Part shown: positions 1,981-22,757 of the stretch, one piece after another
Layout: the number at the start of each line of letters is the position of its first letter
Numbering within the stretch: the stretch's first letter is position 1
DNA from: Escherichia phage ECO340P1
Sequence record: OP172791
Strand: one strand, 5' to 3'
DNA: 64,000 nucleotides
Position numbers and translations under genes: made by a program
Notes under the pieces: generated by a model
What the model saw: only the letters and a program-made list of their open reading frames with translations
Database searches by the model: none
What the model was told of the DNA's origin: nothing

Positions 1981-2571
1981 ATGCATACCGAGAGAGACTT
2001 GCAACTCTTGTGGTGGGAAGTGATGCAGGAAATAAAAGAAGATTTTCCTGTTTACTACAACATGTTACGTGAAGCAGGATATAAAGCTTGTGTTAGAAAC
2101 AAAGTGAATAACTCTTTCGGTTGGTGCAACTACCGAGATAAAATTGTTGTTGTAAATTGGCACTTGCATAAGAACTCCACAAGAGATATGATCGTGGATA
2201 CAATGAAGCACGAAATTGCTCATGCTATTGATGGTTGTATGGGTAAGTTTAGTAGGCACGGTGCTCATTGGCAAAAACTGGCAGCAGAATTAGGGGCTAA
2301 TCCTAAAGCCACTTCCAAAGAGCCGTTGAACCACGAATATAAATATGTTCTTGTTCTGGTAGATAGGTTTGCGACAAGATGTGTTAGAGGTTATAATCGT
2401 AAACCTAATCGCATGTACCCAGGTAAGCAACCTAATATGTGGTTGAAATCAGATAAAGAAGGGACCGAAGGAAAATTATGGTTGTATAAATGGGACGATT
2501 GGGTTAAAGTAGCTAAAGAGTACGGTGTTTCACCATATATAAGAGATGCAGAAGAGGAGAATGAAGAATGA
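1981..2571 (+). CDS. SprT-like zinc metallopeptidase domain protein
   Basis: HEIAHAIDGCMGKFSRHGAHW: HExxH plus downstream His and Trp, as in the SprT/WLM family. Confidence 0.5.
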   Translation: MHTERDLQLLWWEVMQEIKEDFPVYYNMLREAGYKACVRNKVNNSFGWCNYRDKIVVVNWHLHKNSTRDMIVDTMKHEIAHAIDGCMGKFSRHGAHWQKLAAELGANPKATSKEPLNHEYKYVLVLVDRFATRCVRGYNRKPNRMYPGKQPNMWLKSDKEGTEGKLWLYKWDDWVKVAKEYGVSPYIRDAEEENEE

Positions 2572-3680
2572 CAAGTCCATTTTTAAAAGCAGCTACTGGT
2601 GGTCAGAAGAAGCCTGAAATGAGCGTATTTGCTGCAACAACAGATGCAAGTAAATCTGTATTCGCTCCAAGCGTGTTAGATGCCAGTCCTGTTTATGCAC
2701 CAGCGGCACCGCAAGAAGTTCCAGTTTTGCCTTCTATGACCCGACAAGAGATTGAAGAGATTGGGGCAGAGGCAGGAACAACCTTGCGTTCCTTGAATGC
2801 CGAGGTGTTAAAACATCAACGTAGTAATCAAGGCGATCAGATGAGTGAACGACTCACAGCTTTGATTAAACAGGCAAAACAACTTGATCCAAACTCTATT
2901 AAACAAAGCAAGGGTATTACTAAACTCATTAAAAAAGTTATGGGTATGAAAGAAGACCTGTTCGGGGAGTTTGATAATGTTAATAACCGTATTGAAGAGT
3001 TGGTAAAGAACCTTCAAATGGATATTCGCAAAGAAGAAGATTCCTTGGTATATCTTGAAAAGCTGCATCAAGCTATTGGACAATATGCTGCAAGTTTGAA
3101 CCGAGATATGCAGCTTCTAACAGCAACCTATGAAAAAGAAGAACAAGCTTTGGCTGCTCTTCCAGAAGATGCAGTAGAACAGCGACAAGTGATCCGAGAT
3201 ACTTTGGATCTTCTGGAGATTCGTATTGCAGATTTAAAAGCATTGCGCCTACTGTGTGTCCAAATGGGACCGCGTGTACAAGGTATGCAAAAAGTTTCTG
3301 CAAGCTTAATGCGATCTGCGCGTAACATAGTAAATAATGTTATTCCTGCTTACTCTGCTAACTTCTCAATGTATATCGAGAGCTTACGTCAAATGAAAGC
3401 AGCAGAGACGCAGAATAACGTTCTTGATGAATTTAACCTGGCAATTAAACTGGGTAGCGATCTTGCCACACAGAATCAGATCGAAGCAGCAGCACTGGCT
3501 AACCGTCAAGTGTTGGATATTGAAACTCTGCGTCACGATCAGGAAAACTTGGTTAAGATGCTGGAAGAAACTAACCGCATCAATACGGAAGCCCGTGCTG
3601 CTCGTGTTGATTATATTAATGAAGTTCAATCTCTGGAAGACGGGATGGTAGCTGCTGTGAAACGAGGGCTTGGTAAATGA
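2568..3680 (+). CDS. TelA-like (toxic anion resistance) coiled-coil protein
   Basis: 370 aa, heptad-rich and charged, size and composition typical of the TelA/KlaB family; sits between TerC and TerD-family genes. Confidence 0.4.
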   Translation: MTSPFLKAATGGQKKPEMSVFAATTDASKSVFAPSVLDASPVYAPAAPQEVPVLPSMTRQEIEEIGAEAGTTLRSLNAEVLKHQRSNQGDQMSERLTALIKQAKQLDPNSIKQSKGITKLIKKVMGMKEDLFGEFDNVNNRIEELVKNLQMDIRKEEDSLVYLEKLHQAIGQYAASLNRDMQLLTATYEKEEQALAALPEDAVEQRQVIRDTLDLLEIRIADLKALRLLCVQMGPRVQGMQKVSASLMRSARNIVNNVIPAYSANFSMYIESLRQMKAAETQNNVLDEFNLAIKLGSDLATQNQIEAAALANRQVLDIETLRHDQENLVKMLEETNRINTEARAARVDYINEVQSLEDGMVAAVKRGLGK

Positions 3681-3874: not shown

Positions 3875-4047
3875 TGAAAATATTACGAGTGAATATTGAA
3901 ACTGCTTGGTGTGGATGCAATGAGGTTGTTGATATTGAGATTGAAGAGGATATGTCTCAAGAAGATATCGAAGATCTTGCAAAAGAAACATTCCAGGATT
4001 ATTGTAACTACGGGTTCCATATTTTAGAGGAGGGAGAAGATGTTTAA
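3874..4047 (+). CDS. hypothetical small Cys-containing protein (57 aa, below the ORF-track cutoff)
   Basis: ATG at 3874 overlapping the upstream TAA, GGAGGAGGAG RBS, open to TAA at 4045-4047. Confidence 0.3.
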   Translation: MKILRVNIETAWCGCNEVVDIEIEEDMSQEDIEDLAKETFQDYCNYGFHILEEGEDV

Positions 4048-4243
4048 CTACGAGAACGACCCTAACATTATCCAGTTAACTCGACAAGAACTGATCACAA
4101 TCATGGAAGATGCTTTTATCGATGGGTGGAAGACTCAAAACTATGATTGGAGTGGCCCAGAAGACTTTCTGCGTCTTCATAAAGAGTATGACGAGTCCAG
4201 TGAGACGACTATTGCCATTGACGATCTTAAGGCAGGTGTATAA
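4040..4243 (+). CDS. hypothetical protein
   Basis: 67-aa ORF, start overlaps the upstream gene end. Confidence 0.4.
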   Translation: MFNYENDPNIIQLTRQELITIMEDAFIDGWKTQNYDWSGPEDFLRLHKEYDESSETTIAIDDLKAGV

Positions 4244-4812
4244 TGGGTTGCTTTAGTTTTCTGTGTAAGGAGTCGGGCAAAGCTGCCCTCTCCACCTCTT
4301 TCGATGGATCTCCTTGTTATCTCTTTCTACTGAAAGATGGAAAGGTTATCGAAGAGATGCACGGCAATTATGATAGTTATGGGCGTGTCTTCTCCAGTAA
4401 GCAGGATGCTCACGGGAACAGAGAAAGCTTTAAATGGACTATACCTTGGAGCGACGTTTGTGATCTTATGTTCTCTGTAAACCGTGGAGACGGTATTGCT
4501 ATGGTTTTAGCAGAACACTTTACAGGAGAAGCCCCCACAGAACGATCCGAGGATGATCCTAATCAAGGTTGGGGAGACGGAGACGGAGAAGAAGAAGAGG
4601 ATTATTTCTACAGCACCGAAAATAATATTTTCAAACGTGTTGACAACCCTTATCATAAAGTGCATAATGTCCTCACTGAAACAGAAGACGACAAAATGGA
4701 AATTGAAGAAGATGATCCTCTTGTAACACTTCCTATAAGTGAGTTACAAAAGATCACTAAGGAAGCTTACGATTTGGGCTTCAAAATTGGTAGAGGAGGT
4801 ATGCGTGTTTAG
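4243..4812 (+). CDS. hypothetical acidic protein
   Basis: 189-aa ORF with a D/E-rich central region. Confidence 0.5.
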   Translation: MGCFSFLCKESGKAALSTSFDGSPCYLFLLKDGKVIEEMHGNYDSYGRVFSSKQDAHGNRESFKWTIPWSDVCDLMFSVNRGDGIAMVLAEHFTGEAPTERSEDDPNQGWGDGDGEEEEDYFYSTENNIFKRVDNPYHKVHNVLTETEDDKMEIEEDDPLVTLPISELQKITKEAYDLGFKIGRGGMRV

Positions 4813-8314: not shown

Positions 8315-8878
8315 ATGATTTATTATATTACTCCCTATCTGACAGGAAATATCGGCAAGGCTATCAATGAAGCCATTGCCGTTCTTCCAGATGATAGTTG
8401 GGTGTGTTTAAGAGATACCGATACAATGTTCCTCCTACCTGATCAACCATCTATGCTTGAAGAGCTTGTTATGTCAAATCCGCCTTTTGATGTAATAGGT
8501 GCAACTTGTAACAGGTTAGGCAGTGGTTATCAGCTTTTCTCTAACCAAATTAACGATGATCCAGATATTCTAAACCATATAGAATATGCTAAGATTGCAA
8601 GAGAATATCATAAAGTGAGTGTTGAAGAAGTTCCTTTCGGAACACCTCTAGCAGGTTTCTTCTTGCTTTTTAGAAAATCATTGTGGAATGAAATTCCTTT
8701 CGAAGAAAAATCTATCCAATTCGACTTAATTTTCTCTCGCACTTTACATGAAAAAGGAAAGAGGTTAGGATTGATGCGGGGAATGTATCTGTTTCACATT
8801 TACAGATTAGGTCAAACAAATCCTCAACGGTCTATACATCATTTATTACACTGTCATGATCACAGTAAAACTATTTAG
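8315..8878 (+). CDS. hypothetical protein, possibly glycosyltransferase-related
   Basis: 187-aa ORF with GGAGGGGAGA RBS; first gene of a glycosyltransferase block; no firm motif. Confidence 0.4.
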   Translation: MIYYITPYLTGNIGKAINEAIAVLPDDSWVCLRDTDTMFLLPDQPSMLEELVMSNPPFDVIGATCNRLGSGYQLFSNQINDDPDILNHIEYAKIAREYHKVSVEEVPFGTPLAGFFLLFRKSLWNEIPFEEKSIQFDLIFSRTLHEKGKRLGLMRGMYLFHIYRLGQTNPQRSIHHLLHCHDHSKTI

Positions 8879-8886
8879 GAGAGAAA

Positions 8887-9570
8887 ATGGAAAATATTAA
8901 AATTGGAGTGGGTGTTATCACTGTAGGTGTCCGTCCACTTAAAGACTACCTTGTAACAGATCCACGTGCAGATTTTCGAGTATTCAACGATCCAGATCGT
9001 AAAGGTGTAGCTTATGCCAGGAATGAACTTATGCACCAGTTTTATGAAGAAGGTTATGATTATTGGTTTATTTTTGACGACGATTGCTACCCAGTCATGG
9101 AGGGATGGGAAACATACTTTGTAGGTCAAGCTGTCTCTGGAGGATGGGATTTCTTTGGTATGCCGGAGTATTTCAAAGATAAAGTTGTTGGAAGCAAAGG
9201 AGAAGTTATTCTCTGGGAACTTGCAATGTGTCAATTTGCAATGTATTCTCGTGCCGTTGTTGAGAAGATGGGTTATTTCCGTCCTTACACTCACGGCTAT
9301 GGTTTTGAAGATGCTGAATGGGGACACCGTTTGCAAGCTGCTGGTTTGAATCATGGTATTCAGGCAACACCTTGTCCACTTCGTATCATGGCTTATATCC
9401 ACCCAGACGATGTTTTTGGAAACAATCCTATGCCTTTTGCTAATCTGACAAAAGAAGAGAAAGAAGCTGCTATCGGGATTAACTGGGAAGAATATAAAGC
9501 ATCTTTAGAGGATATTAAAAATGGGAAAATCCGAATTTCCTATGAGGAGGCACTGGCACATGTCAAATAA
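8887..9570 (+). CDS. glycosyltransferase, GT-A fold (family 2-like)
   Basis: N-terminal beta-alpha-beta region GVGVITVGVR and DxD-type motif FDDDC. Confidence 0.55.
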   Translation: MENIKIGVGVITVGVRPLKDYLVTDPRADFRVFNDPDRKGVAYARNELMHQFYEEGYDYWFIFDDDCYPVMEGWETYFVGQAVSGGWDFFGMPEYFKDKVVGSKGEVILWELAMCQFAMYSRAVVEKMGYFRPYTHGYGFEDAEWGHRLQAAGLNHGIQATPCPLRIMAYIHPDDVFGNNPMPFANLTKEEKEAAIGINWEEYKASLEDIKNGKIRISYEEALAHVK

Positions 9571-10507
9571 AAAATGGTCTAAACTAAAAATTGATGCAAA
9601 ACCTCATAGCGGTTGTGACTATCATCGTATTGTTATGCCATTTAACAACAATAATTTTCAACCTAAGAAAGATATTGTTGTGTTTAACCGTATCCACTCT
9701 AAAGGTGCAGAATACGTTTTATCTTTGAAACGTCAAGGTGTTAAGGTTGTTGTAGATTTAGATGATTTTTACCAACTTAATCCAGAGCATTATTTAGCAA
9801 GTCTATACGAGTCAAACACTCATGCTATTGTAGCTATGGTTAAGCTTGCTGATGTGGTTATTGTGACTACAGAATATTTGGCATATAAGATCCGTCACTT
9901 AAATAGAAATGTCGTTGTGATCCGAAATGCACTTCCTTTTGATAGCGGACAATTCACTTTGTCAAATGATCGTTCATCCGGTACCCCTGTTGTATGGGCT
10001 GGCGGTGCTAGTCACGAACCAGATTTACGACTAGTCTCTAATACTTTCGATGATGAACTTCTTACTATTGCGGGATATGAAGCATCACAAAGCATCACGG
10101 GACAAGAGTGGATTAAGATTCGCAGAAATTTACCAAATGCCAAATATAAAGCTGCTGTAAAAGATTTAGATAATTACATGAGTGTTTACGAAAGTCATGC
10201 TATTGCTATAGCTCCTTTGGTAGACAATGATTTTAATAATTGTAAAAGTAATCTCAAAATCCTGGAAGCTGGAGCAAAAGGTATTCCGATTATTTGTTCT
10301 AAGGTATTACCTTATTTTAACCCTGTAGATGCTCGCGCTGTTGCTTACGCAGAGAATAAAGCAGAATGGCATTACGAAATTGTTAAGCTTCTTCGCAATC
10401 CAAACTATCGGGAAGATCGTGGCTTGTTCTTGGCTGAACATGTTCGAACACATTATAATCTGGCAGATGCAAACGAGTTGCGACGCCAGGTTATTGAAAG
10501 TTTGTAG
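9560..10507 (+). CDS. glycosyltransferase, GT-B fold (GT1/GT4-like), paralog of 10515-11459
   Basis: ATG at 9560 after GAGGAGG; C-terminal KSNLKILEAGAKGIPIICS resembles the GT-B nucleotide-sugar binding motif; clear paralogy with the next gene. Confidence 0.55.
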   Translation: MSNKKWSKLKIDAKPHSGCDYHRIVMPFNNNNFQPKKDIVVFNRIHSKGAEYVLSLKRQGVKVVVDLDDFYQLNPEHYLASLYESNTHAIVAMVKLADVVIVTTEYLAYKIRHLNRNVVVIRNALPFDSGQFTLSNDRSSGTPVVWAGGASHEPDLRLVSNTFDDELLTIAGYEASQSITGQEWIKIRRNLPNAKYKAAVKDLDNYMSVYESHAIAIAPLVDNDFNNCKSNLKILEAGAKGIPIICSKVLPYFNPVDARAVAYAENKAEWHYEIVKLLRNPNYREDRGLFLAEHVRTHYNLADANELRRQVIESL

Positions 10508-10514
10508 GTGAAGT

Positions 10515-11459
10515 ATGGGACAAATAATTCTTGACAATCGTAACGGAATCAATTATAGTGTCTGCGATTTCCATAGGGTAGTGCTGCCTTACTCAAGGCA
10601 GTTCTCTTCACAACCTAAATACAACGTTTTCGTTTTTAACGGAGTGCCAACAAAAGGTAAAGAGGGCTTTTTAGCCCTTAAAAACCTAGGCTTTAAAATG
10701 GTTATGGATTTGGATGACTCTTTAGTTATTCCAAAAGGACACATGTTAGAAGGTATTTTTGAATCAGGTATTCGTGAACATTTAAAATGGTTTTTAGAGC
10801 ACAGTGATCTTGTTACAACTACGACACCTGCCTTGCAAGTTGAACTTTCACAATACAATGATAATGTGCACATAATCCCTAATGGACTTCCTTATGACGA
10901 AGGTCAATTTGTGTTGACCCGTGATCGCTACTCCAAAACTCCATTAGTCTGGGCTGGAAGTGAAACACATAAGCAAGATTTGGCTATCTTGCCCGATTTT
11001 GGTAAAGATCTTACAATATGTGGTTTTCGTAGGGATTCTGAAGTTTTAAGTAGTCGTGAATGGTCTGTAATCAGAGAAAATGTAGCACCAACTTGTGTTT
11101 ATGAAGGTGTAAGACCATATGCCAACTACATGGAATCTTACGATGGTCATCAAATCAGTCTTGCGCCACTGATTGATAACGTGTTTAATAATGCAAAAAG
11201 CAATCTTAAAATTCTTGAGGCAGGTGCTAAGGGTTTACCTTTGATCTGTTCTCCTCGTGAGAATTATCATACACAAGAGTTTAAAGATCTGTTGTTCTTT
11301 GCTGAAACACCTTCCGAGTGGAAAGATATTACGGAATACTTATTAAGTGCTCCCGATGTTTGCATGGAGAAAGGATTAGCATTAGCTAAGTATGTCAGGA
11401 CTCATTATCACATTGATGTGTTGAATGAGCGTCGTAGACTTTTATTTGAGGAGCTATAA
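10515..11459 (+). CDS. glycosyltransferase, GT-B fold (GT1/GT4-like), paralog of 9560-10507
   Basis: Shares CDYHRIVMPF/CDFHRVVLPY, PVVWAGGASHEPDL/PLVWAGSETHKQDL and KSNLKILEAGAKG motifs with the upstream gene. Confidence 0.55.
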   Translation: MGQIILDNRNGINYSVCDFHRVVLPYSRQFSSQPKYNVFVFNGVPTKGKEGFLALKNLGFKMVMDLDDSLVIPKGHMLEGIFESGIREHLKWFLEHSDLVTTTTPALQVELSQYNDNVHIIPNGLPYDEGQFVLTRDRYSKTPLVWAGSETHKQDLAILPDFGKDLTICGFRRDSEVLSSREWSVIRENVAPTCVYEGVRPYANYMESYDGHQISLAPLIDNVFNNAKSNLKILEAGAKGLPLICSPRENYHTQEFKDLLFFAETPSEWKDITEYLLSAPDVCMEKGLALAKYVRTHYHIDVLNERRRLLFEEL

Positions 11460-11737
11460 TGATTAACACTTTTGATTTTGAATACACCACTCGTAACGGG
11501 AAAGCCTTAGTTGTGGAGGTGGATTACTATTATGAAGAGCCTAACCCGCTTTCTCGTGAAAGTGATTGGGATTACCACGGAGGGCTTTTAATTGACGGTA
11601 TTCGTTTTTATGAAGGCTCTACAGAAGTTTTTGAAAAAGATTTAAATGTAACTGTAGCAGAAATTGCTTTCCAATTTAGAAAGCATATGGAAGAACTAGA
11701 AGCAGAATATATGATGGAGACTAACGAACCATTTTAA
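11459..11737 (+). CDS. hypothetical protein
   Basis: 92-aa ORF with overlapping start. Confidence 0.4.
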   Translation: MINTFDFEYTTRNGKALVVEVDYYYEEPNPLSRESDWDYHGGLLIDGIRFYEGSTEVFEKDLNVTVAEIAFQFRKHMEELEAEYMMETNEPF

Positions 11738-11749
11738 CAGGAGAACAAA

Positions 11750-13528
11750 GTGTCGCACATTATAACTAAATATGGATTTGATGTTGATCTTAGCAAGGAA
11801 GGGCATACAGGTTGTCCGCGCTGCATGAAAAATGGCAAGGATCGCTCTCGTAATAACCTGATGGTTTATGGATTAGATTCTAATGGAGAGCATAAAGGTG
11901 CTAAGTGCTTTGCGTGTGAATACACTATTCCTAGCGTAGAATGGTTACGAGAAAATGGTGAAGTTTTAGAAGAAGAGGAGGAGATTGTGGGTTCGGAATT
12001 TAATAAACAGATTCATCGTAAAATTGTTCAAGAAACATCAACCAACCCACGTGGTTATCGAGGAATTAAAGAAAAAGTTTCATCTTTCTATGGTGTTCGT
12101 TATGAATACCGTCAGGAAGGGGATCAGATGGTAGTAGAAAGTTGTTTATATCCGACTACTATCGGTAAAGAATTGGTTGGTTTTAAGCGTCGTATTCATC
12201 CTAAAGATTTCAGTAAACCTATTGGTCAAGTAGGTAAAGATGTAGATCTTTTTGGACAAATTCGTTTTGCAGACCGTTCTCATACTGTGGTAATTACAGG
12301 TGGTGAACACGATGCTCTGGCAGCTTATCAAATGCTATCTGAAAACTTGGACAACAAGTATGAACTTCCAGCAGTAGTTAGTGGCACAACTGGTGAAACC
12401 AGTATGTATAAACAAGTTCAGGCACAATATCCTTTCTTTGAAAAATTTAAGAAGATTATTGTTTGCATGGATAATGACAAAGCAGGTAATGAAGCATTTG
12501 AAAATATTGTTAAGGTGCTGCCTCGTAACAAAGTCTACCGTATGCAGATGGATCTTAAGGATGCCAATCAGTATCTGGAAGAAGGTCGTGCAAAAGATTT
12601 CGTAAAAGCTTTTTGGAGTGCTCGTCTATACACCCCAGCAGGTGTTTATGCTTCTAATGTCTTGTATGAAGCTGCATTAGAATGCTTGGAATCCAAGATG
12701 ATTACCTTGCCTCCTTTTATGCGTGTAGCTGCAAACATGCTGGGTGGTGGTTTAGTAGAGGAAGAGATTACAGTCATCCTGGCAAAGACCAGTATCGGTA
12801 AAACTTTAATGGTGAACGAGATCACCAAACATATTATTGTTGCGCACCCAGAACATACCCTAGGTATCCTGTCCTTGGAAGCAACTTATAAGAAATATTC
12901 TCGTAACCTGTTGTCCTCGTTCCTGCATATTCCTCTACACAGGAAAACACCGGAAGAGAAATTTCAAATCTTGGAAGAGAATAAAGAAAAAATCCTAGAT
13001 TTTTACGAAAGAGAAGATGGATCACCACGTTTTTATGTGTGTGATGATCGTGGAGCAGATGTGGAGTCTATCAAAGAAAAAGTTTTGGAGATGATCATCT
13101 ATTTTGGAGTAACAATTCTTGTTATCGACCCTTATTCTGATTTGCTTTCTGGTATGGATGTTCAAGCCCAGGAAGAGTTAGCAACATGGTTGAAGCGCAT
13201 CATGAAAGAGTATGCTATAACTATTATCGTCATCTCACACGTTAAGAAATCGGCTAATGGTGGCAATGAACACTTAACAGAGGACGATGCAATGGGTAGT
13301 AGTTTCTTGGCTAAAGGTGCTGGTATTACCTTGGCTTTGGAACGAGATAAAGCCGCTGAAGACCCTGTAGAACGCAATACGACTCATTGCTTTATCCTAA
13401 AAAACCGTGAGTTCTCGGAAACTGGTCCGGCAGGGCAGTTTTACTATGACATTAGAACTGCAACTCTGCATGACAAAGAGCAGTATTTCAACAATCCTGC
13501 TAATTTGCCTACGGATAGCAACTATTAA
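11750..13528 (+). CDS. bifunctional DNA primase-helicase (T7 gp4-like)
   Basis: GTG start after AGGAGA; N-terminal zinc ribbon CPRC...CFAC, TOPRIM motifs (GGEHDALAAY, CMDNDKAGNEA), helicase Walker A KTSIGKT. Confidence 0.85.
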   Translation: MSHIITKYGFDVDLSKEGHTGCPRCMKNGKDRSRNNLMVYGLDSNGEHKGAKCFACEYTIPSVEWLRENGEVLEEEEEIVGSEFNKQIHRKIVQETSTNPRGYRGIKEKVSSFYGVRYEYRQEGDQMVVESCLYPTTIGKELVGFKRRIHPKDFSKPIGQVGKDVDLFGQIRFADRSHTVVITGGEHDALAAYQMLSENLDNKYELPAVVSGTTGETSMYKQVQAQYPFFEKFKKIIVCMDNDKAGNEAFENIVKVLPRNKVYRMQMDLKDANQYLEEGRAKDFVKAFWSARLYTPAGVYASNVLYEAALECLESKMITLPPFMRVAANMLGGGLVEEEITVILAKTSIGKTLMVNEITKHIIVAHPEHTLGILSLEATYKKYSRNLLSSFLHIPLHRKTPEEKFQILEENKEKILDFYEREDGSPRFYVCDDRGADVESIKEKVLEMIIYFGVTILVIDPYSDLLSGMDVQAQEELATWLKRIMKEYAITIIVISHVKKSANGGNEHLTEDDAMGSSFLAKGAGITLALERDKAAEDPVERNTTHCFILKNREFSETGPAGQFYYDIRTATLHDKEQYFNNPANLPTDSNY

Positions 13529-14061: not shown

Positions 14062-14856
14062 TTGAGCAAGTTGAACACACTTGATCAATATTACACTAAC
14101 CCCGCTTATGCGGGGTTCTTATGTGATAAGATCAAAGAAATTTTTGGAGAGGAAGCTAACTACGTAGAACCATCTGCGGGAGAAGGAGCTTTCTCTTCTT
14201 GTTTTAAAAACATAACTTCTTTTGATATTGACCCTAAGTTTGAAGATTGTATTGAGGCAGATTTTTTAGCTCAATCTGTTGAGTCTGTTGGTAGTGTAAC
14301 TGCTTTTGTCGGTAATCCTCCATTTGGAAAAAATGCTAGTCTTGCCATTAAATTCTTTAACCATTGTGCTGAAATGCTGGATAACGAAGGTGGTATTTGT
14401 TTTATCTTGCCTCGCACATTTCAAAAAATCTTTTTTGCACACAAGCTAAATCCCCATATGCATCTTCTTTACGAAGAAGAATGTCCAAAAGGATCTTTTA
14501 TTCTTCATGGAGAACCTTGGGATGTTCCTTGTGTATTCCAGGTATGGATTAAACGCAACGAGAAGCGTTCTCCCGTTGTTTTAGGAGAGAATCGACTATT
14601 CGTATTAGGTAACAGTAAAGACTACGATATAGCCGTTAGGAGAGCGGGAGCAAGTGCAGGTAAAGTGTTATCAGAAGAAGATTCTTTATCTGAAGCATCT
14701 ACCTATTTTTTAAAAGCCTTGACTTCTGATCTTAAAACGCGTATCATTGAGGCTTACCCGTTACTTAAAGCTGAAGCTAGTAAAACTGCGGGAGTAAGAA
14801 GTTTAAGTTTAAAAGAACTTCAGTGGGTTCTGGAGAACATTAGAAAGGAGGAATAG
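14062..14856 (+). CDS. DNA amino-methyltransferase (N6-adenine or N4-cytosine)
   Basis: TTG start after AAGGAGGA; SAM-binding-like EPSAGEGAF and catalytic NPPF motifs. Confidence 0.6.
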   Translation: MSKLNTLDQYYTNPAYAGFLCDKIKEIFGEEANYVEPSAGEGAFSSCFKNITSFDIDPKFEDCIEADFLAQSVESVGSVTAFVGNPPFGKNASLAIKFFNHCAEMLDNEGGICFILPRTFQKIFFAHKLNPHMHLLYEEECPKGSFILHGEPWDVPCVFQVWIKRNEKRSPVVLGENRLFVLGNSKDYDIAVRRAGASAGKVLSEEDSLSEASTYFLKALTSDLKTRIIEAYPLLKAEASKTAGVRSLSLKELQWVLENIRKEE

Positions 14857-17453
14857 TGAGTAAGTTTACATGGGATATTGAAGCAAACGGATTGTTGAAT
14901 AATGACACTATTGATTATTTAGCTAGTCCTTATCGTCTCAAAGACACATTTCAAATGCACTGTATTGTCTTAGAGAACCATGAAACAGGAGAAATAGTAG
15001 CTTTCCACGATGGCCCTAAATACATCTTTGATGGGCGTCCTTACGAAGAGTCAGATGGTAAATACACATATGTTCTTAAAGAGTATGTGGCGCAAGATTA
15101 CACACATTTTCAACTAAAAGATTTCCCAGATTTTATTAATCATGAAGGTTATTTTAAAGACAAGCCTGAATATCTAGTTGAAATGGCTGTGGCTCACAAC
15201 GGTATCAACTACGACTGGTTGGCTACAAAACTGTTTTATGGATTAGATTACAGTGTTAAATATAATACGTGGGGCAAAAATAAGGTAAAACTTATTGACT
15301 CCTTGATTTTGAGTAAAGTGTTAAACCCAGATCGAAAGATTGAGGGCAAATCAGGACATAGCTTGGCAGCACTTTCTCGAAAAGCAGGTGGTGATGTAAA
15401 AATAGATTTCCGTAAAGAGATTCCAGAAGAAGATCGATTTAAGACTTTTGCTGCGGATATGCTTTATTACTGTATCTATGACAACAAAGCCAATACGAGC
15501 GTATATAATTACCTTATGGAAGAATGGGGTGATTATGATAAATGGGAAGGTCCATTTGAACTTGAACAACGTGTAGCAGACATTATTACACGCCAGGAAC
15601 ACCGTGGGTTTGCTTTTAACATGAAACAAGCAGAAGAGAACCTTGCTTTTTTGGATGCAGAAATGGAGCGTCTTCGTTTACTCGTTGAGCCTATTTTGCC
15701 ACCTAAACCAGCAACAAAAGGTTATCTTAAGGCTTTTATTCCACCTAAGTTGCAAATTAAAAAGAACTTAGAGCCAACTAACCATATGATCAATTTTGCT
15801 AAGAAACATGATGGTCATTTGGAAGAGAGGGATGGCGATTGGTGGTTAGTTATGTTGGGGAAAGAGTGGAAACTGCCAGTTGCAGCAGATGAGCCTCTAT
15901 GTGATCCTAACATTCCTGCAACATTGAACGATACAACCCATATTAAAAACTGGCTTGTAGGATTAGGTTGGGTACCGTCTGAATATAAAGATAAAGACTT
16001 GACGCTTAAATCTGGCACCAAAATTAAAAAGAGCGAGGAAGAACTTCAGAAAGGTATTAGAGCTTACGTTGAGCAAACTCTATCTTCTAATTTTTGTCAG
16101 GATCGTTGTGATCATCTGGAGTGCACACCGGAAACTTTGGAAAGGAAGATTCAAGAGCGTATAGCAAAAGGTAAAGGTCGCGGTCTTAAAGTATTGACTA
16201 ACCCATGTTTTACCAAAGGTCAGGAAAAAGAAATTTGTCCTAACCTGCAAGCTTTGGGTGAGAAATTTCCTTATGCTACACAGATTGTAGAATACTTAAC
16301 GTATAAGCATCGTAGGAACTCTATTTTAGGTGGCGGTGCTGATTGGGAAGAAGATGAAGAAGATCAAGAATACGATAAAGGTTTCTTAGCCGCAGTAAGG
16401 GCGGATGGGCGTATTCCTACACCAGCCGCTACATGTGATGCTGCAACCTCTCGTATGAAACATAGATCTGTAGCTAATATTCCTCGTGTCACATCTTTGT
16501 TTGGATGGGAGATGCGTAACTTGTTTGGTGTAGAGGTTCCTAAATACTTCCAGATCGGCTACGACTTCGACTCTTTGGAAGCAAAAATTGAATCACATTA
16601 CTGTTGGCGGTACGAGCCGGAGCCACACGAGTATTGTAACGCTCTGTTGTTAGAGAAACCTAATGATGTTCACACAATGATGGCAAAACGTATCACTGAA
16701 ACTATTGGACGTAAATTTGAACGTAGTCCTGCTAAATCTGTTAAGTATGGTATTACCTATGGTGCACAAGCCGACAAGGTTGCTAAAACAATTGGTAGCG
16801 ACAAGTTTACAGGTCAATTGGTGTTCGATGCTTTCTGGGAAGCTGCATTCCCATTGGCGCGTCTTAAAGAACGTTTAAACGATTTCTGGGTTAAGACTGG
16901 TAAACAATATGTTTTGGGTATTGACGGTCGTAAGGTTCCTACTCGTTCTGCTCACGCGATTCTTAACTCTCTGTTCCAAAGCGGTGGGGTTATCTGTGCT
17001 AAACGTGCAATGGTTATTTATGATGACATGATCGAAGAAGAAGGGCTAAGTGTTGACTTCTTTAAAGATGACTGGAAGAATAAAGACTTCGTGCAACAAA
17101 TGATTGCATATCACGATGAAGCCCAGCTTGAAGTTTCTCGTAACCTTGTAGAATTCAAATGGTTTTCACCTGAATCATTAGGTTGGAAGAAAGTAGACGA
17201 TCCTGAAGAACAAAAGAAAATTGATAAAGAATGCCTTGCTAAAGTCGAAGAATGGAAGCATAATAAGGAAAAAGAGACAGGGCAAATTTGGGCTAACATT
17301 CATGAATCTCCCAAAGGTGGATGGTTTACAGCCTATAGTCGGGCAGGTGAACTTGCTGCTTTAGCTGTTACTAAAGCTGGAGAATTTTACAATCTTAATG
17401 TTCAGCTTACTGCTGGATATGACGTGGGGAATTCCTGGGCCAGTTGTCACTAA
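14856..17453 (+). CDS. family A DNA polymerase with 3'-5' exonuclease domain
   Basis: Exo I motif TWDIEANGL; polymerase motifs YDFDSLEAKI (A), KSVKYGITYGAQ (B), YHDEAQLEV (C). Confidence 0.85.
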   Translation: MSKFTWDIEANGLLNNDTIDYLASPYRLKDTFQMHCIVLENHETGEIVAFHDGPKYIFDGRPYEESDGKYTYVLKEYVAQDYTHFQLKDFPDFINHEGYFKDKPEYLVEMAVAHNGINYDWLATKLFYGLDYSVKYNTWGKNKVKLIDSLILSKVLNPDRKIEGKSGHSLAALSRKAGGDVKIDFRKEIPEEDRFKTFAADMLYYCIYDNKANTSVYNYLMEEWGDYDKWEGPFELEQRVADIITRQEHRGFAFNMKQAEENLAFLDAEMERLRLLVEPILPPKPATKGYLKAFIPPKLQIKKNLEPTNHMINFAKKHDGHLEERDGDWWLVMLGKEWKLPVAADEPLCDPNIPATLNDTTHIKNWLVGLGWVPSEYKDKDLTLKSGTKIKKSEEELQKGIRAYVEQTLSSNFCQDRCDHLECTPETLERKIQERIAKGKGRGLKVLTNPCFTKGQEKEICPNLQALGEKFPYATQIVEYLTYKHRRNSILGGGADWEEDEEDQEYDKGFLAAVRADGRIPTPAATCDAATSRMKHRSVANIPRVTSLFGWEMRNLFGVEVPKYFQIGYDFDSLEAKIESHYCWRYEPEPHEYCNALLLEKPNDVHTMMAKRITETIGRKFERSPAKSVKYGITYGAQADKVAKTIGSDKFTGQLVFDAFWEAAFPLARLKERLNDFWVKTGKQYVLGIDGRKVPTRSAHAILNSLFQSGGVICAKRAMVIYDDMIEEEGLSVDFFKDDWKNKDFVQQMIAYHDEAQLEVSRNLVEFKWFSPESLGWKKVDDPEEQKKIDKECLAKVEEWKHNKEKETGQIWANIHESPKGGWFTAYSRAGELAALAVTKAGEFYNLNVQLTAGYDVGNSWASCH

Positions 17454-17871: not shown

Positions 17872-18090
17872 ATGCGTAAATTAGTGAGCTTTAATGTTTC
17901 AATTCTTGTTGATGAACAAAATGAAGATGTTATTAAAGGTCTTGCAAATAAGATTGCAGGTGGAATGACGGAAGCTGAAGTGTGGGAAGAATGTGCTCGA
18001 CTTTATGAGGAAGGTGTTATTGAGGTCTTGGGGGATGAGATTAATATGGACGATGTTGTAAAAGTAACTGTGGAGCGTATCAATGACTAA
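17872..18090 (+). CDS. hypothetical protein
   Basis: 72-aa ORF with AAGGAGAA RBS. Confidence 0.45.
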   Translation: MRKLVSFNVSILVDEQNEDVIKGLANKIAGGMTEAEVWEECARLYEEGVIEVLGDEINMDDVVKVTVERIND

Positions 18091-18676
18091 ATCAAAACAA
18101 ATCAATATTGCCAAAGAAATTCTTACCGTATTAAAGATCGCTGATCCTAATTCTGTCTTGGCTGGCGGTGCTGTTCGTGATTGGCGTATTCTTGATATTG
18201 CTGGACGTGATCTGGATTTCTATACATCCCTTCCTGCACATCGGACTGAAGAACAAATACAAGGATTAATTGCATCTGCTTTAATGGGAACCAATATTCG
18301 TAAACTAGGAAACAAAGAGGCTTCTGACAATTATGAAGGTGTTACTGGTCTTAAACACGTTTTTGAGTTTGAACGTGATGGTCAGCTTTGCAACCTTATG
18401 ATTATGGAACCAAGCGTAATGACAACCTTTCTAAATGAGTTCGATCTGTCCATCTGCCAGGCTGCATTTGATGGGAAGGATTGTTATTATTCTAAAGATT
18501 TTGAAACAACCTTGGAAACAGGGATCTGCTTCTTGCACAAAGACGTTAGAGAAGATGCCAAACACGTTATTAAAATTGCTACACGTTTCCCATATCTTCG
18601 TTTTGTGAAAGAGGTTAAGGTTCCACGTCCACCTCAAGTAGATACCAGATTGGAAGAAGATGATATTCCTTGGTAA
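18083..18676 (+). CDS. nucleotidyltransferase (Pol-beta superfamily, CCA-adding enzyme head-domain-like)
   Basis: LAGGAVRDW...GRDLDF matches the GGxVRD ... DxD signature of tRNA nucleotidyltransferase / poly(A) polymerase head domains. Confidence 0.55.
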   Translation: MTKSKQINIAKEILTVLKIADPNSVLAGGAVRDWRILDIAGRDLDFYTSLPAHRTEEQIQGLIASALMGTNIRKLGNKEASDNYEGVTGLKHVFEFERDGQLCNLMIMEPSVMTTFLNEFDLSICQAAFDGKDCYYSKDFETTLETGICFLHKDVREDAKHVIKIATRFPYLRFVKEVKVPRPPQVDTRLEEDDIPW

Positions 18677-18703
18677 TTAAAGCTTGACAATATTAAACAT
18701 TTT
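18674..18703 (+). promoter_or_regulatory. sigma70-like promoter (TTGACA-N18-TAGGAT)
   Basis: -35 TTGACA at 18674-18679, -10-like TAGGAT at 18698-18703. Confidence 0.45.
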
Positions 18704-18721
18704 ATGATAGGATAGCATTCA

Positions 18722-19114
18722 ATGACTGAACGTTCTAAGATAGCTGTTGAAACTGTTTATGGAAACTATACCAGTTTGACACTAGTTGAGAAAAATGTTG
18801 TAGGTCTTGACAACTCTTTTTATTTTCAAATTTTGGTTATTCAAGGTGGAAACAAGAAGCTAACTGCTCGTGTTGAAACATCTGAAATAATTGAAACCAC
18901 TGTTACAAACAAAGAATTCATTTCACTGCAAGATACAATCCGAAACGTTATAGACGAAGAAGGCAAAGCTGCCACAATTAAACTCGGAGGTTTCCCAGTG
19001 CAAATAGTTCATTTTCCTAATGGTGAAATTGGAGTTGGAATAGGTAAAGGTAAATACCTGTTAGAGCAAGATGATATGGAAAGACTCCGTTCTTTCTGTG
19101 CAAAATTAATGTAA
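18722..19114 (+). CDS. hypothetical protein
   Basis: 130-aa ORF downstream of the promoter. Confidence 0.45.
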   Translation: MTERSKIAVETVYGNYTSLTLVEKNVVGLDNSFYFQILVIQGGNKKLTARVETSEIIETTVTNKEFISLQDTIRNVIDEEGKAATIKLGGFPVQIVHFPNGEIGVGIGKGKYLLEQDDMERLRSFCAKLM

Positions 19115-19130
19115 TGTAGAGGAGATAATA

Positions 19131-20018
19131 ATGTCCGTAATTAATACTGAAACTGATCGTAAAGGCAAAACCGTAACTTATGCAACTGGTATCGTAGACT
19201 ACGTTAAACTGGATAAATTCGCTGAACCTAAAACTTTTCATTGGGAAGGAAAAACGATTGTTTCAACTCACCGAGCTTCTCTTGTTCTGAAAGAGAAAGG
19301 TGCTAAACCAGATGAGAAAGGTGTTTGGATTTCTCTTGGTGACATTGAACTGAAAGAAGGTTATGAAAACCTGCAAGTCAAAGAAGGTGATAATTGGATC
19401 ACTATTGAAAAAGGTGTAGAAGTAAGTATTGATATTGATCGCGTTGATAATAAAGGCGGTAAAACTTACTACAATACTAAAAAATCTCGTATTACAGTAT
19501 TGTCTACCGATGGTGTTCAGAAGTCTAACAAATCTTCTGGCAATAAAGGTTCCAACGATGCTGCTCCTAAGCAATCCTATAAAAAACGTGATACTGTAGG
19601 TCTGGAAACTGGTCACGCAGTAAATGGTGCACTGGAACTGATTCGTAATGGTGTTAAAGGCGATGCTTTCGATATCGCTGGGGTTGTTCAATCTGCAACT
19701 GTCACGCTGAAATCGGAAATTGCTGAATCTCGTGGCGTTGATATTAATGATTATGATCTTGGGGCATCTGTTGGTCACGCTATTCTTAATGCTTGTAAAG
19801 ACCATACCATTAAGACTGTATCTGTAGAAGATCTGATTGACTCTGCTCGTAAAGTTCTAGCTCTGTCTGATAAAGTTGCTGCTGCCATTCGTGGTTCCGC
19901 AGAACAACCTAAGAAAGAAGAGAAGAAAGAAGTTAAAAAGCCTGAACCACAACCAGAACCAACTCCAAGCAATCAAGAAGAACCTCCAATGGACTTCGAT
20001 GATGATATTCCATTCTGA
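19131..20018 (+). CDS. single-stranded DNA-binding protein with acidic C-terminal tail
   Basis: C-terminus MDFDDDIPF is identical in pattern to the bacterial SSB protein-interaction tail; preceded by a Pro/Glu-rich linker. Confidence 0.6.
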   Translation: MSVINTETDRKGKTVTYATGIVDYVKLDKFAEPKTFHWEGKTIVSTHRASLVLKEKGAKPDEKGVWISLGDIELKEGYENLQVKEGDNWITIEKGVEVSIDIDRVDNKGGKTYYNTKKSRITVLSTDGVQKSNKSSGNKGSNDAAPKQSYKKRDTVGLETGHAVNGALELIRNGVKGDAFDIAGVVQSATVTLKSEIAESRGVDINDYDLGASVGHAILNACKDHTIKTVSVEDLIDSARKVLALSDKVAAAIRGSAEQPKKEEKKEVKKPEPQPEPTPSNQEEPPMDFDDDIPF

Positions 20019-20050: not shown

Positions 20051-20080
20051 AAAAGGGAACCTTTGCGGGTTCCCTTTTTT
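20051..20080. terminator. bidirectional Rho-independent terminator between convergent early and late blocks
   Basis: AAAA-GGGAACC-tttgcg-GGTTCCC-TTTTTT, with A-tract and T-tract flanks, between the SSB stop (20018) and the tail fibre stop (20082). Confidence 0.7.
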
Positions 20081-20081
20081 A

Positions 20082-22757
20082 TTAGTCGTAATATTTCAAA
20101 CCTGTAATGAACTTCGATCCCCAATCCGCACTTGCGGCGGTGAACGTCAACATCCAAGTTGTAGCTGTACCAGTGAAGACCTCTCGTTGCACAGTACCAT
20201 CAGTGTGGTAAATGTCCACGCCAGTATGTCCATTCTTAGGAATAGTGAAGGTAACAGCACTGGTAGTGTCTCGTGCATAAGAACAAACAAATGGTGTCCC
20301 CGCCCAAACTGGATTTGTCATATCACCCATCTCAAGCTGTGGAACCCAAGCAATAAGACCTGCCGTACCATCTCCTGCGAAAGTGTCTGATCCACTTGCA
20401 TTCAAAGCTATAATCTCATAGGTTATAGATGCTTGTTTGGCAACTGTCACTTTGTGTAGAATTACACGATACCAACCGTTCCCCATATCGATTATGTTTG
20501 CATCTGCACCTGTAAATGTTCCAGCTACAAGATCATAAGTCCCTTCGTTAATCTCATCTCCTGAAGTCAATTTGAGTTTCACTTTAGTGATCCCGTCTGG
20601 CTTCAAGAATACGGATGCCGCCCAGTGCTTACCTGCTGTAATATCAGAAGCTGTATTCACTGCTGATAAAATATGTTGTCCTGAAGTTGTAGAAGGTGTT
20701 AACTTGTAAGTGTTAGCCGTAGTTCCAACCGGAGAGTTGATTGTTGATGCTGTGACTGTCAAGTTCGTCTTCAACCACGGGGAAGCTGTTGTCAAGTTAT
20801 TGTTGATAAAGATATGTGTACGGTTGGCTGCTACAACACGTCTACCTTGTGGAGTTGTACCAACATATTCTAAAGGTGCTACGGGAGCAGAACTCTCTGT
20901 AGGTACAAGGATATCTCCAGAAGCCCTGGCATAACGGTTACTCCTGTTGACCTTTACATCCGCCGGAATAGTTTCTTGCGTCAAATCATAGTCCATCACA
21001 ATGACCACAGCATTCACTGTGAGATAAGAACTATCTTCGGCAGTTACCACACCTTGATAAGTTGCTCTACAACCGATACGACAACCTCCATCAGCAACCG
21101 CTGTAATAACGCCTGTAACGGGGTCAACTGTTGCTACCGTAGGGTCATTAGAGAAATACTCAACAACCACACCAGGTAAGCTTGCTGCTCCTGTTGGCGT
21201 TATTTCTGCTACCATTGTTTGTGTTGTTCCTACATCCATCGCAGATAAGCTAGGAGTGTAAACGCTCAATGTTGAAGCATATCCTCCAGAGGTATCTGAT
21301 AAAGTTGTTCCTTCAGCGTTTAAGGCTGTCATACCTGCATCAAAACCACCTTCTGCATGGAAAGTCATTAAACCAGTAGATGATATTGTCATGTTTGCAG
21401 GGGCAGAAGAAGTGTATTTAATATTGAAAAGTTTACCTCCTTCTGGGCTAACAGAATGTGTCAACTGTTTAGTTCCACCTACAATACAAATTCCTAAAGA
21501 ATCTGTAGTTAAGCCAGTTGCCAGAATATCACCCGTAATCACGGAGCTTGCTATTGGTGTGAATTTATTATAGTTTAGACCACTATTGAACAGATACGAG
21601 GCTTTCCCATCTTTCCAAATACCGGAATAATACATATCCCCGTTATAAACGAAAAAGGTTCCTTGATAACCTAATTGGTTAGTAATATCCATATTCAGCG
21701 TATGAACGCTTGTGAGCTTGTTTATATCCCAGGAACCCACTCCTTCAGGTTTAACTGGTTTTCCCACTTGGAGTGGATCTCCGCTCGCAGAATCATACCC
21801 CAAACCTAAGTTTGCAGTGTAGTTCTTACCAATAGCCCACAAGGAATTGTTGATCCCAACGAAAAAAGAGTGGCGGCTTGGTGGAAATTTCCATGTTGAG
21901 AAACCTGCTGCAAAGGTATCCAGTTTAGTGTAGGTTGTTTCTGTATTAGACCTGACATATAAGTAGTTTACCGTGCCCGTACCACCGGAGGTATCTCCTA
22001 CAACTATTGTCTGGGAAACTGTATTGATGTAATCTTTGACATACACTGTTTCAGTAGCGGATATCGTGGCATTGACAAAAGCGGTTGTTGTGTTATTATT
22101 ACCTGCTAAACCTTTACTAGCTCCACAAACACGCAAGGTTCCCACATTGTTGACATAAGAGCATTGGTTGTAACCTGCATCAAAAGCAACTGCTGAACTT
22201 GTTATCTGACGAGGAGTAGAAACTTCGTTAGTAGTGCTTGCACCTAAACTACCTACTGTGTTTTGACCCGATCCATAAAGAACACCACTATTCATTAACC
22301 AGAGAGTATTGTTATACCCTCCTTTAACCTCTTTAAGATTGGCTAAAGAAATAGTCCCTGTTATTACAGATGGAAAGCTGGTCCAAGTAGTTACACATGC
22401 ATCCGTACCACCTGCTGCTATAGATCCTACCAACCCTGCTGTCAATCCTGAATATTGCCATCCCCCACTGTTAGTTTTAATAACAAAACAACGATCTGCG
22501 GTAAACACATCCGCTACTACAGTAGAAGCTAAGTGGAAATTATTGAATCGTGCACTACGAGTTCCATCTGCAATCTCACCAAAGAGGTTTGCGCCTTGAG
22601 TAAACAATCTACCATCATTAAGCAAAATTGCCAAACTGCTGTTAGAATTACCAGCGTTATCTGGGTAATCTAAAGTAATTACTTTTTTAACAATACCTGC
22701 TGGCAGAGGAACGACACCAGTGCTGGTCATAATAGTAAATATTGGAATTGGAAACAT
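20082..22757 (-). CDS. tail fibre / receptor-binding protein
   Basis: 891 aa, Gly/Thr/Ser/Asn-rich beta-type composition; last gene of the tail fibre block. Confidence 0.6.
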   Translation of the reverse strand: MFPIPIFTIMTSTGVVPLPAGIVKKVITLDYPDNAGNSNSSLAILLNDGRLFTQGANLFGEIADGTRSARFNNFHLASTVVADVFTADRCFVIKTNSGGWQYSGLTAGLVGSIAAGGTDACVTTWTSFPSVITGTISLANLKEVKGGYNNTLWLMNSGVLYGSGQNTVGSLGASTTNEVSTPRQITSSAVAFDAGYNQCSYVNNVGTLRVCGASKGLAGNNNTTTAFVNATISATETVYVKDYINTVSQTIVVGDTSGGTGTVNYLYVRSNTETTYTKLDTFAAGFSTWKFPPSRHSFFVGINNSLWAIGKNYTANLGLGYDSASGDPLQVGKPVKPEGVGSWDINKLTSVHTLNMDITNQLGYQGTFFVYNGDMYYSGIWKDGKASYLFNSGLNYNKFTPIASSVITGDILATGLTTDSLGICIVGGTKQLTHSVSPEGGKLFNIKYTSSAPANMTISSTGLMTFHAEGGFDAGMTALNAEGTTLSDTSGGYASTLSVYTPSLSAMDVGTTQTMVAEITPTGAASLPGVVVEYFSNDPTVATVDPVTGVITAVADGGCRIGCRATYQGVVTAEDSSYLTVNAVVIVMDYDLTQETIPADVKVNRSNRYARASGDILVPTESSAPVAPLEYVGTTPQGRRVVAANRTHIFINNNLTTASPWLKTNLTVTASTINSPVGTTANTYKLTPSTTSGQHILSAVNTASDITAGKHWAASVFLKPDGITKVKLKLTSGDEINEGTYDLVAGTFTGADANIIDMGNGWYRVILHKVTVAKQASITYEIIALNASGSDTFAGDGTAGLIAWVPQLEMGDMTNPVWAGTPFVCSYARDTTSAVTFTIPKNGHTGVDIYHTDGTVQREVFTGTATTWMLTFTAASADWGSKFITGLKYYD

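Follow-up and report, generated by a model that had tools for sequence, protein, structure and literature searches.

Partners of bacterial single-stranded DNA-binding proteins (SSBs) recognize the acidic C-terminal tip of these proteins, the terminal Phe entering a hydrophobic pocket while its carboxylate and the Asp residues lie on a basic rim. In phage T7, the tail of gp2.5 contacts the T7 polymerase and the helicase-primase. Host-type tips are common among phage SSBs, and phage SSBs that carry them are well known; the SSB of phage HK620, which the paper on it calls a distant SSB homolog, has a tip, NDYPPF, that is required for the stimulation of Sak4. Here, we describe an SSB-like gene at positions 19131 to 20018 of a 64,000-nucleotide stretch of Escherichia phage ECO340P1 (record OP172791), the whole of which is referred to below as the window. 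We propose, with a probability of roughly 70%, that its product is the replicative SSB of a T7-like module, and the functional counterpart of T7 gp2.5, with a host-type tip. The supports for this proposal are an OB fold, an SSB-like layout, the tip itself, the gene context and its synteny, searches that found no other SSB, and the genetics of a homolog, Bas52_0087.

Phage SSBs are emerging as a main infection signal for defence systems (Retron-Eco8, AbpAB, DARNA and DRT9), and a preprint of April 2026 on DRT10 adds the family described here to the SSB-sensing defences (bioRxiv 10.64898/2026.04.29.721553). In that work, Bas52_0087 of a Vequintavirus is the “SSB-like” trigger of DRT10 (UG17), a reverse-transcriptase/SLATT defence system; the protein is required for DRT10 activation, and escape mutants of phage Bas52 carry the substitution D252V or Y351C in it. 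The dosage of SbcB (ExoI) modulates DRT10, overexpression of SbcB weakening the defence, and in the authors' proposal SbcB is either competed with or displaced. They read the region of the escape sites as an oligomerisation interface and count a second small beta domain of Bas52_0087 as a second OB fold. DRT10 also restricts Stephanstirmvirinae, where the trigger was not named.

Domain structure and a host-type tip

The gene and the segments of its product (in amino acids, aa; model confidence as predicted local distance difference test, pLDDT) are as follows:
19119-19124, + strand: Shine-Dalgarno sequence GAGGAG, 6 nt 5' of the ATG, read from the sequence
19131..20018, + strand: SSB-like coding sequence, 295 aa, ATG start, TGA stop (from the open reading frame, ORF, list and the sequence)
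19131..19505, + strand: OB-fold domain, residues 1-125, putative single-stranded DNA (ssDNA)-binding core; all-beta in the model, pLDDT about 90
19506..19586, + strand: disordered linker 1, residues 126-152, basic, Ser/Gly/Asn/Lys-rich, isoelectric point 9.9; pLDDT <50 at 133-149
19587..19892, + strand: four-helix domain, residues 153-254, helices 156-172, 179-201, 208-223 and 232-253; pLDDT about 95
19893..19982, + strand: linker 2, residues 255-284, Lys/Glu/Pro-rich, disordered, pLDDT 46-60; variable length across the family
19983..20015, + strand: tip PPMDFDDDIPF, residues 285-295, the same 11 residues with which E. coli SSB ends

The ATG at 19131 is supported by the N-terminus M-[SP]-V-I, which is common to all homologs. 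An earlier note on this DNA, made from the letters alone, had taken the protein for a possible phage SSB, a reading that stood or fell with an OB or other DNA-binding fold and a conserved tail; an OB fold is predicted and the tail is conserved. In the AlphaFold2 model of the whole protein (67-sequence alignment, mean pLDDT 82.5) the C-terminal 40 residues are disordered, and the N-terminal domain modelled alone is a confident OB fold (pLDDT 90.7, predicted template-modelling score, pTM, 0.81). The 60 best PDB matches of this domain were all nucleic-acid-binding OB folds, about 20 of them SSB or mitochondrial SSB chains, with further matches to RPA32/70/14, PriB and the PolC OB domain. The PolC OB domain scored 6.9, RPA32 6.8, B. 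subtilis SsbB bound to ssDNA 6.7 and E. coli SSB (1kaw) 6.3; scores of 5.7-6.6 were obtained for SSBs of Bartonella, Plasmodium, Thermus, Helicobacter, Mycobacterium, mitochondria and other sources, as well as for RPA70N, PriB, Stn1 and the anticodon domains of Asn/Asp-tRNA synthetases. Among the OB-domain positions conserved by 60% or more of the family are Trp 66 and 89, Tyr 113 and 114, His47 and seven Lys/Arg residues, which would be the inventory expected of an ssDNA-binding face. A fold search of BFVD returned uncharacterised phage homologs only.

Sequence searches of the core gave a different picture from the fold. No Pfam family matched the protein by hmmscan, PF00436 matched none of the 67 aligned family members at E<=1, and a family profile compared with all PDB sequences recovered SSB tails only. 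The best PHROG, 4477 (E=3e-97), is annotated “unknown function”. Membership of PF00436 was rejected because the Pfam, PHROGs, phmmer and family-profile searches found the tail only. Most likely, judging from the model, the OB domain of this family is very divergent. The statement of the earlier note that the N-terminal 200 residues do not resemble E. coli SSB in sequence therefore stands, while its treatment of them as a single domain does not, as a beta domain and a separate four-helix domain, which the note had missed, are joined there by a disordered linker.

The four-helix domain holds most of the invariant or near-invariant positions (D154, G157, G161, H162, A163, T190, K194, G211, G215, A217) and two related motifs, D-x-x-G-x-E-x-G-H-A-V-N-G-A and Y-D-L-G-A-S-V-G-H-A-x-L-N-A. 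When residues 150-204 were compared with 205-256 by hhalign, the halves proved homologous (probability 92%, E=5e-7), G-L-E-T-G-H-A-V-N-G-A pairing with G-A-S-V-G-H-A-I-L-N-A; the domain is thus a tandem duplication of a helical hairpin. It is the family-defining module, with a putative role in oligomerisation or cooperativity. An exhaustive HMMER search of 1.84 billion cluster representatives showed the family to be small, with 318 clusters at E<=1e-3, of which 216 reach E<=1e-10. In the most distant members the large OB domain has given way to a smaller domain of beta structure, about 70 aa long, to which a Gly-rich linker is joined in some; what they retain is the helical domain and an acidic tail, with tips such as EDDIPF, EDDLPF, DDGLPF, DDDLPW and EEELPW. 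Fusion of the helical domain to an OB fold of canonical SSB type was sought among these members and rejected, as a Pfam scan gave no matches, and a Salmonella phage 40 “SSB” that matches the helical domain, another candidate for such a fusion, proved to be a fragmented Vequintavirinae assembly. In the long-form homologs (365-425 aa) a small beta domain of about 55-110 residues, depending on the lineage, is inserted at the position of linker 1. Since the alignment shows it to be absent from the window protein and from all forms of 275-320 aa, this insertion is a feature of a subfamily and not of the family as a whole.

The protein ends in ...PSNQEEPPMDFDDDIPF, also written ...KKPEPQPEPTPSNQEEPPMDFDDDIPF. 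As the earlier note had stated, the tail is that of bacterial SSB: phmmer against PDB sequences aligned residues 269/270-295 alone, and the chains matched were E. coli SSB and one near relative, each through its tail. E. coli SSB and the SSB-like protein share all of their final 11 residues, with PSN before them in either case. The linker before the tip, described there as Pro/Glu-rich, does contain both residues but is Lys-rich too. We found 137 homologs among 5.8 billion proteins, and the counts that follow refer to the 120 that were listed, which are 29-99% identical. The xPF tip is kept in 120/120, at the very C-terminus in 103 and followed by a short extension in 17; DDDIPF occurs in 70, DFDDDIPF in 56 and the full PPMDFDDDIPF in 27, and in three the match to E. 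coli SSB extends to the 15-mer PSNEPPMDFDDDIPF. Averaged over these homologs, identity to the query reaches 85% in the final 11 residues and 92% in the final six, compared with 46% for the OB domain, 46% for the helical domain and 25% for the two linkers, and P294 and F295 are invariant across the family. With an identity above that of all other segments, the tip is the segment under strongest purifying selection. On this comparison of sequences, the match to the E. coli SSB tail is not a product of chance. The tail alone (last 45-50 residues) also matches two PHROGs with an SSB annotation, 18154 and 7364.

The last 98 nt of the gene contain matches of 39-56 nt, at 81-92% identity, to mostly plasmid-borne ssb 3' ends in 558/5426 E. 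coli genomes. Recent capture of the tail from a host ssb gene was considered on this account and set aside: with the peptide fixed and both sequences AT-rich, the DNA match is uninformative on origin, cannot tell transfer or ancient module capture from convergence, and was not used as evidence.

Replication context and proposed function

Bas52_0087 (QXV84166.1; MZ501102) of Escherichia phage RudolfGeigy/Bas52 aligns colinearly with the window protein by BLASTP, at 35% identity over the OB domain (E=8e-13) and 33% over the helical domain and tail (E=9e-16). It shares the N-terminal OB domain, the duplicated-hairpin helical domain with its GHA motifs and a disordered tail ending FDDDIPF; it differs in its length of 408 aa, with about 110 residues, the second small beta domain among them, added between its OB domain and its helical domain. 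When the Bas58 ortholog, whose residues at both sites are those of Bas52_0087, was aligned with the window protein, D252 maps to the near-invariant D154 at the start of the helical domain, and Y351 to A250 in its last helix. Both DRT10 escape sites thus lie in the helical domain. By alignment, the window protein is a short-form member of this Bas52_0087/PHROG 4477 family of rV5-like and phAPEC8-like myoviruses.

The window phage is a Phapecoctavirus (Stephanstirmvirinae), a phAPEC8/ESCO5-like myovirus with a genome of about 149 kb. The SSB-like gene is the last member of a same-strand cluster whose other members are:
8315-11459, + strand: four glycosyltransferase-like genes (PHROG glycosyltransferase families), at the cluster start
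11750-13528, + strand: fused T7-like primase-helicase (gp4-like Toprim plus DnaB_C)
between the primase-helicase and the Dam-like methyltransferase, + strand: 143-aa ORF
14062-14856, + strand: Dam-like methyltransferase, adjoining the polymerase
14856-17453, + strand: family A DNA polymerase (Pol A), 865 aa
between the polymerase and the nucleotidyltransferase, + strand: three small ORFs
18083-18676, + strand: minimal CCA-type nucleotidyltransferase, 197 aa (PHROG nucleotidyltransferase families; GGAVRD...DLD motif)
18722-19114, + strand: 130-aa ORF, PHROG 16560 “unknown function”, ending 17 nt 5' of the SSB-like gene

The association with replication genes extends well beyond close relatives. 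Three relatives at 29-35% identity, on unrelated phage contigs of 76-95 kb, were compared: two have primase-helicase, Pol A, one to three small ORFs and the SSB-like gene in this order, and the third has primase-helicase, Pol A and SSB-like gene all within 5 kb. A T7 gp5.9-like gene adjoins the SSB-like gene in one distant relative and lies a few kb downstream of it in another. The tie of the family to a T7-like replisome is old. There is no other annotated SSB in the rest of the near-identical genome of phage ABPW7, and when the E. coli SSB and T7 gp2.5 sequences, both entered by hand, were used as phmmer queries against all ORFs of at least 50 codons, only the tail of the SSB-like ORF matched.

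We therefore favor a replicative SSB that would work as follows. The OB domain (1-125) would bind ssDNA, the contacts being made by conserved Trp, Tyr, Lys and Arg residues, and the duplicated-hairpin domain (153-254) may mediate self-association or cooperative binding. The flexible Lys/Glu/Pro linker would present the tip PPMDFDDDIPF, which, being identical to that of host SSB, should dock in the same hydrophobic and basic pockets of host proteins, namely those of ExoI/SbcB, Pol III chi, PriA, RecQ, RecO, DnaG, RNase HI and others, and possibly also onto the phage polymerase or primase-helicase. Phage ssDNA coated in this way would be serviced by host enzymes, for which the phage protein would compete with host SSB. 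Since the protein is proposed to be abundant, essential and disruptive of host ssDNA metabolism, defence systems could read it as an infection signal, as DRT10 does the Vequintavirus homolog.

Several points weigh against this assignment. The Pfam and PDB profile searches connected the core sequence neither to PF00436 nor to another SSB family, and the search for a second SSB consisted only of annotation and single-sequence phmmer. For the whole family we infer ssDNA binding, oligomerisation by the helical domain and the partners of the tip, and our literature search found no reported biochemistry of PHROG 4477. Finally, an extension of about 15 residues in 17/120 listed homologs would bury the free carboxylate that the partners of bacterial SSB recognize; the tip may therefore be dispensable in some phages, or the gene calls may differ from the mature protein.

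A second protein of the cluster has a related tail. The nucleotidyltransferase ends ...RLEEDDIPW, which resembles the SSB tip with Trp replacing Phe, and an end of the form [DE]-D-x-[IF]-P-W is found in 10/10 of its homologs at 59-98% identity (mostly DDIPW, with EDIPW and DSFPW once each), behind a linker that varies in length and sequence; two homologs at about 32% identity are without a tip-like tail. Because Phe-to-Trp tips also occur within the SSB-like family, the nucleotidyltransferase may, on its sequence, be a second tip-bearing protein of the same cluster. A 92-aa ORF at 11459-11737 (+ strand), directly 5' of the primase-helicase, ends ...EAEYMMETNEPF; this end is acidic, closes with Pro-Phe and is weakly tip-like, and the resemblance may be chance. 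One could speculate, although we regard it as rather doubtful, that the duplicated-hairpin domain and host-type tip define an unrecognised class of SSB in which the OB domain can be swapped, and that the tip is a portable address label carried by both the SSB-like protein and the nucleotidyltransferase. If so, the two proteins would connect phage enzymes to the ExoI-type pockets meant for host SSB, or obstruct these pockets, and the cluster would amount to a small “SSB-tip mimicry” system, which would explain its monitoring by reverse-transcriptase defence systems.

The conservation of the tip can also be read in another way: many copies of it would titrate or redirect ExoI/SbcB, RecQ and PriA, with the OB domain only an anchor, so that phage DNA ends are protected or host replication restart is shut down. 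The tip is indeed better conserved than either folded domain and identical to the host's over 11 residues, the DRT10 preprint ties Bas52_0087 to SbcB (bioRxiv 10.64898/2026.04.29.721553), and the DDIPW tail of the nucleotidyltransferase looks as if several tip bearers were deployed. A decoy or host-takeover role nevertheless leaves too much unexplained to be probable, namely an OB fold whose aromatic and basic residues are conserved, a gene order shared with primase-helicase and polymerase in distant relatives, and the apparent lack of another SSB although the phage, at 149 kb, has replisome genes of its own. Nor is it exclusive, as a true SSB with a host tip would do both.

Similarly improbable, in our judgment, is a tail that mainly contacts the phage's own Pol A and primase-helicase, as in T7, its identity to the host tip being incidental or else allowing host and phage SSB to substitute for each other at the phage fork. 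The tail of gp2.5 provides the precedent, and the SSB-like gene always accompanies a gp4-like primase-helicase and Pol A. Furthermore, the replacement of Phe by Trp and of Ile by Leu, Val or Cys is tolerated (DDDLPW and EEELPW in distant members), suggesting that the tip has co-evolved with a phage-borne partner. However, identity over 11 residues, and over the 15 of PSNEPPMDFDDDIPF in three homologs, exceeds what a generic acidic-aromatic tail would need, and the T7 gp2.5 tail differs in sequence. This role and that of a decoy overlap with a replicative SSB and do not exclude it. The least probable is a recombination mediator or single-strand annealing protein that uses OB domain and tip to load on SSB-coated DNA or to recruit recombinases: the HK620 SSB tip does stimulate the annealase Sak4, but the RecO and DdrC matches are no better than dozens of unrelated ones, no recombinase gene is adjacent, the conserved neighbours being replication genes, and proteins that dock on SSB bear the tip pocket and not the tip.

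Homing endonucleases and neighbouring genes

The residues that follow the terminal Phe in 17/120 listed homologs, about 15-16 in number (APIGLQY..., APIGLQYGRNFLHCF and similar), can be accounted for by mobile elements. In relatives, an HNH homing-endonuclease gene (HEG) is inserted right behind the Phe codon of the SSB-like gene, and some of these insertions delete the stop codon; the ribosome-binding site and start codon of the HEG overlap the sequence that encodes the extension. A functional extra motif was considered and rejected for the extension, which coincides with the HEG insertion and was treated as its by-product. The insertions, at a site that corresponds to just past window position 20015, are:
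3905-4399 of Logan contig L002 (SRR26961125): HNH HEG
from about 1636 of L007, L008 and L009 (BASEL phages Bas58, Bas54 and Bas51): HNH HEG

HEG-bearing alleles have recoded tips, for example DDSIPF and FCDDIPF. With HEGs directly after the tip codons and the alleles that carry them recoded, the sequences suggest that the conserved tip-coding DNA is a homing site of HNH enzymes. A masked C-terminal Phe would also seem to be tolerated in some phages. In the window, the gene is free of both HEG and extension, and its tip is the canonical one.

The SSB-like gene of phage ABPW7 (OP562383) is 100% identical to that of the window in DNA, and 65 records hold a gene that is at least 95% identical. Phapecoctavirus records label it “single-stranded DNA-binding protein” or “hypothetical protein”, and the family is present in 337 phage records of the collection searched. 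The features that border the end of the cluster are:
18684-18713, preceding the 130-aa ORF: promoter-like site TTGACA-18-TAGGAT, a consensus match alone, the number of such sites not being above shuffle expectation
20051-20078, unstranded: GC-rich palindromic hairpin flanked by A and T runs (terminator scan, scored on the minus strand)
20082-22757, - strand: tail-fibre gene, convergent with the SSB-like gene

The hairpin has a T-run on both strands and sits between the convergent SSB-like and tail-fibre genes, and from these features it is likely a bidirectional terminator.

Other genes of the window deserve brief mention. Two of the four glycosyltransferase-like genes at 8315-11459 are paralogs of phrog_7162, with the primase-helicase directly downstream; together with the Dam-like methyltransferase, these genes may form a DNA or surface-glycan modification module. 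The polymerase ortholog is annotated as 1110 aa in ESCO5 and 1189 aa in contig L002, compared with 865 aa here. By coordinate offset, a block of about 735 bp in the ESCO5 polymerase region is absent from the window and could be an intein, an additional domain or a homing-endonuclease gene; contig L002 has an additional 198-aa gene right after the polymerase. Ten tRNA genes lie at 59060-60982 on the - strand (Met x2, Ile, Pro, Gln, Gly, Thr, Asn, Ser and Arg), and this cluster may be linked to the phage CCA-type nucleotidyltransferase. A 370-aa ORF at 2568-3680 (+ strand) has a full-length match to a PHROG annotated “tellurite resistance” (E=1.5e-139).

Comparison with known SSBs

The family provides an SSB candidate for phAPEC8-like and rV5-like myoviruses and their relatives, a large and therapeutically relevant group, for proteins that have no Pfam family, a PHROG of “unknown function” and GenBank records that mostly read “hypothetical”. 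The domain map and the tip give constructs with which entry into the SSB interactome, and the discrimination of phage from host SSB by defence systems, could be probed. As for the suggestion of the earlier note that the protein mimics the host interaction hub, the host-identical tip agrees with it, but “mimicking” may overstate the case, given how common host-type tips are in phage SSBs.

Like the bacterial SSBs of PF00436, including those of plasmids and prophages, the protein combines an OB core with a disordered linker that leads to an acidic tip and its free terminal Phe. No homology to their core sequence was detected, canonical SSBs are without the four-helix domain of about 100 residues, and their linker is Gly/Gln/Pro-rich whereas that of the SSB-like protein is Lys/Glu/Pro-rich. 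Oligomerisation would probably occur via the helical domain rather than as an OB-OB tetramer. With T7 gp2.5 it shares a module that includes a gp4-like primase-helicase and Pol A, as well as an OB core and an acidic tail that ends in Phe. Neither sequence similarity (phmmer with the hand-entered gp2.5 sequence; no Pfam match) nor close structural similarity to gp2.5 was found; gp2.5 has no such helical domain, and the SSB-like tail is of the host type (DDDIPF) and not of the T7 type.

The SSB of HK620 is a phage SSB whose last six residues resemble DDDIPF, and the tail of the SSB-like protein likewise matches SSB PHROGs. In the SSB-like protein, however, only the tail matches SSB families, and its tip is an exact copy of that of the host and not a variant. 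Since host-like tips are familiar from other phage SSBs and the 2026 preprint had already pointed to the family, it does not represent a new kind of system. What is new, with respect to the literature searched, is the domain map, the duplication within the helical domain, the deep synteny, the dominance of the tip in the conservation of the protein and the mapping of the escape sites.

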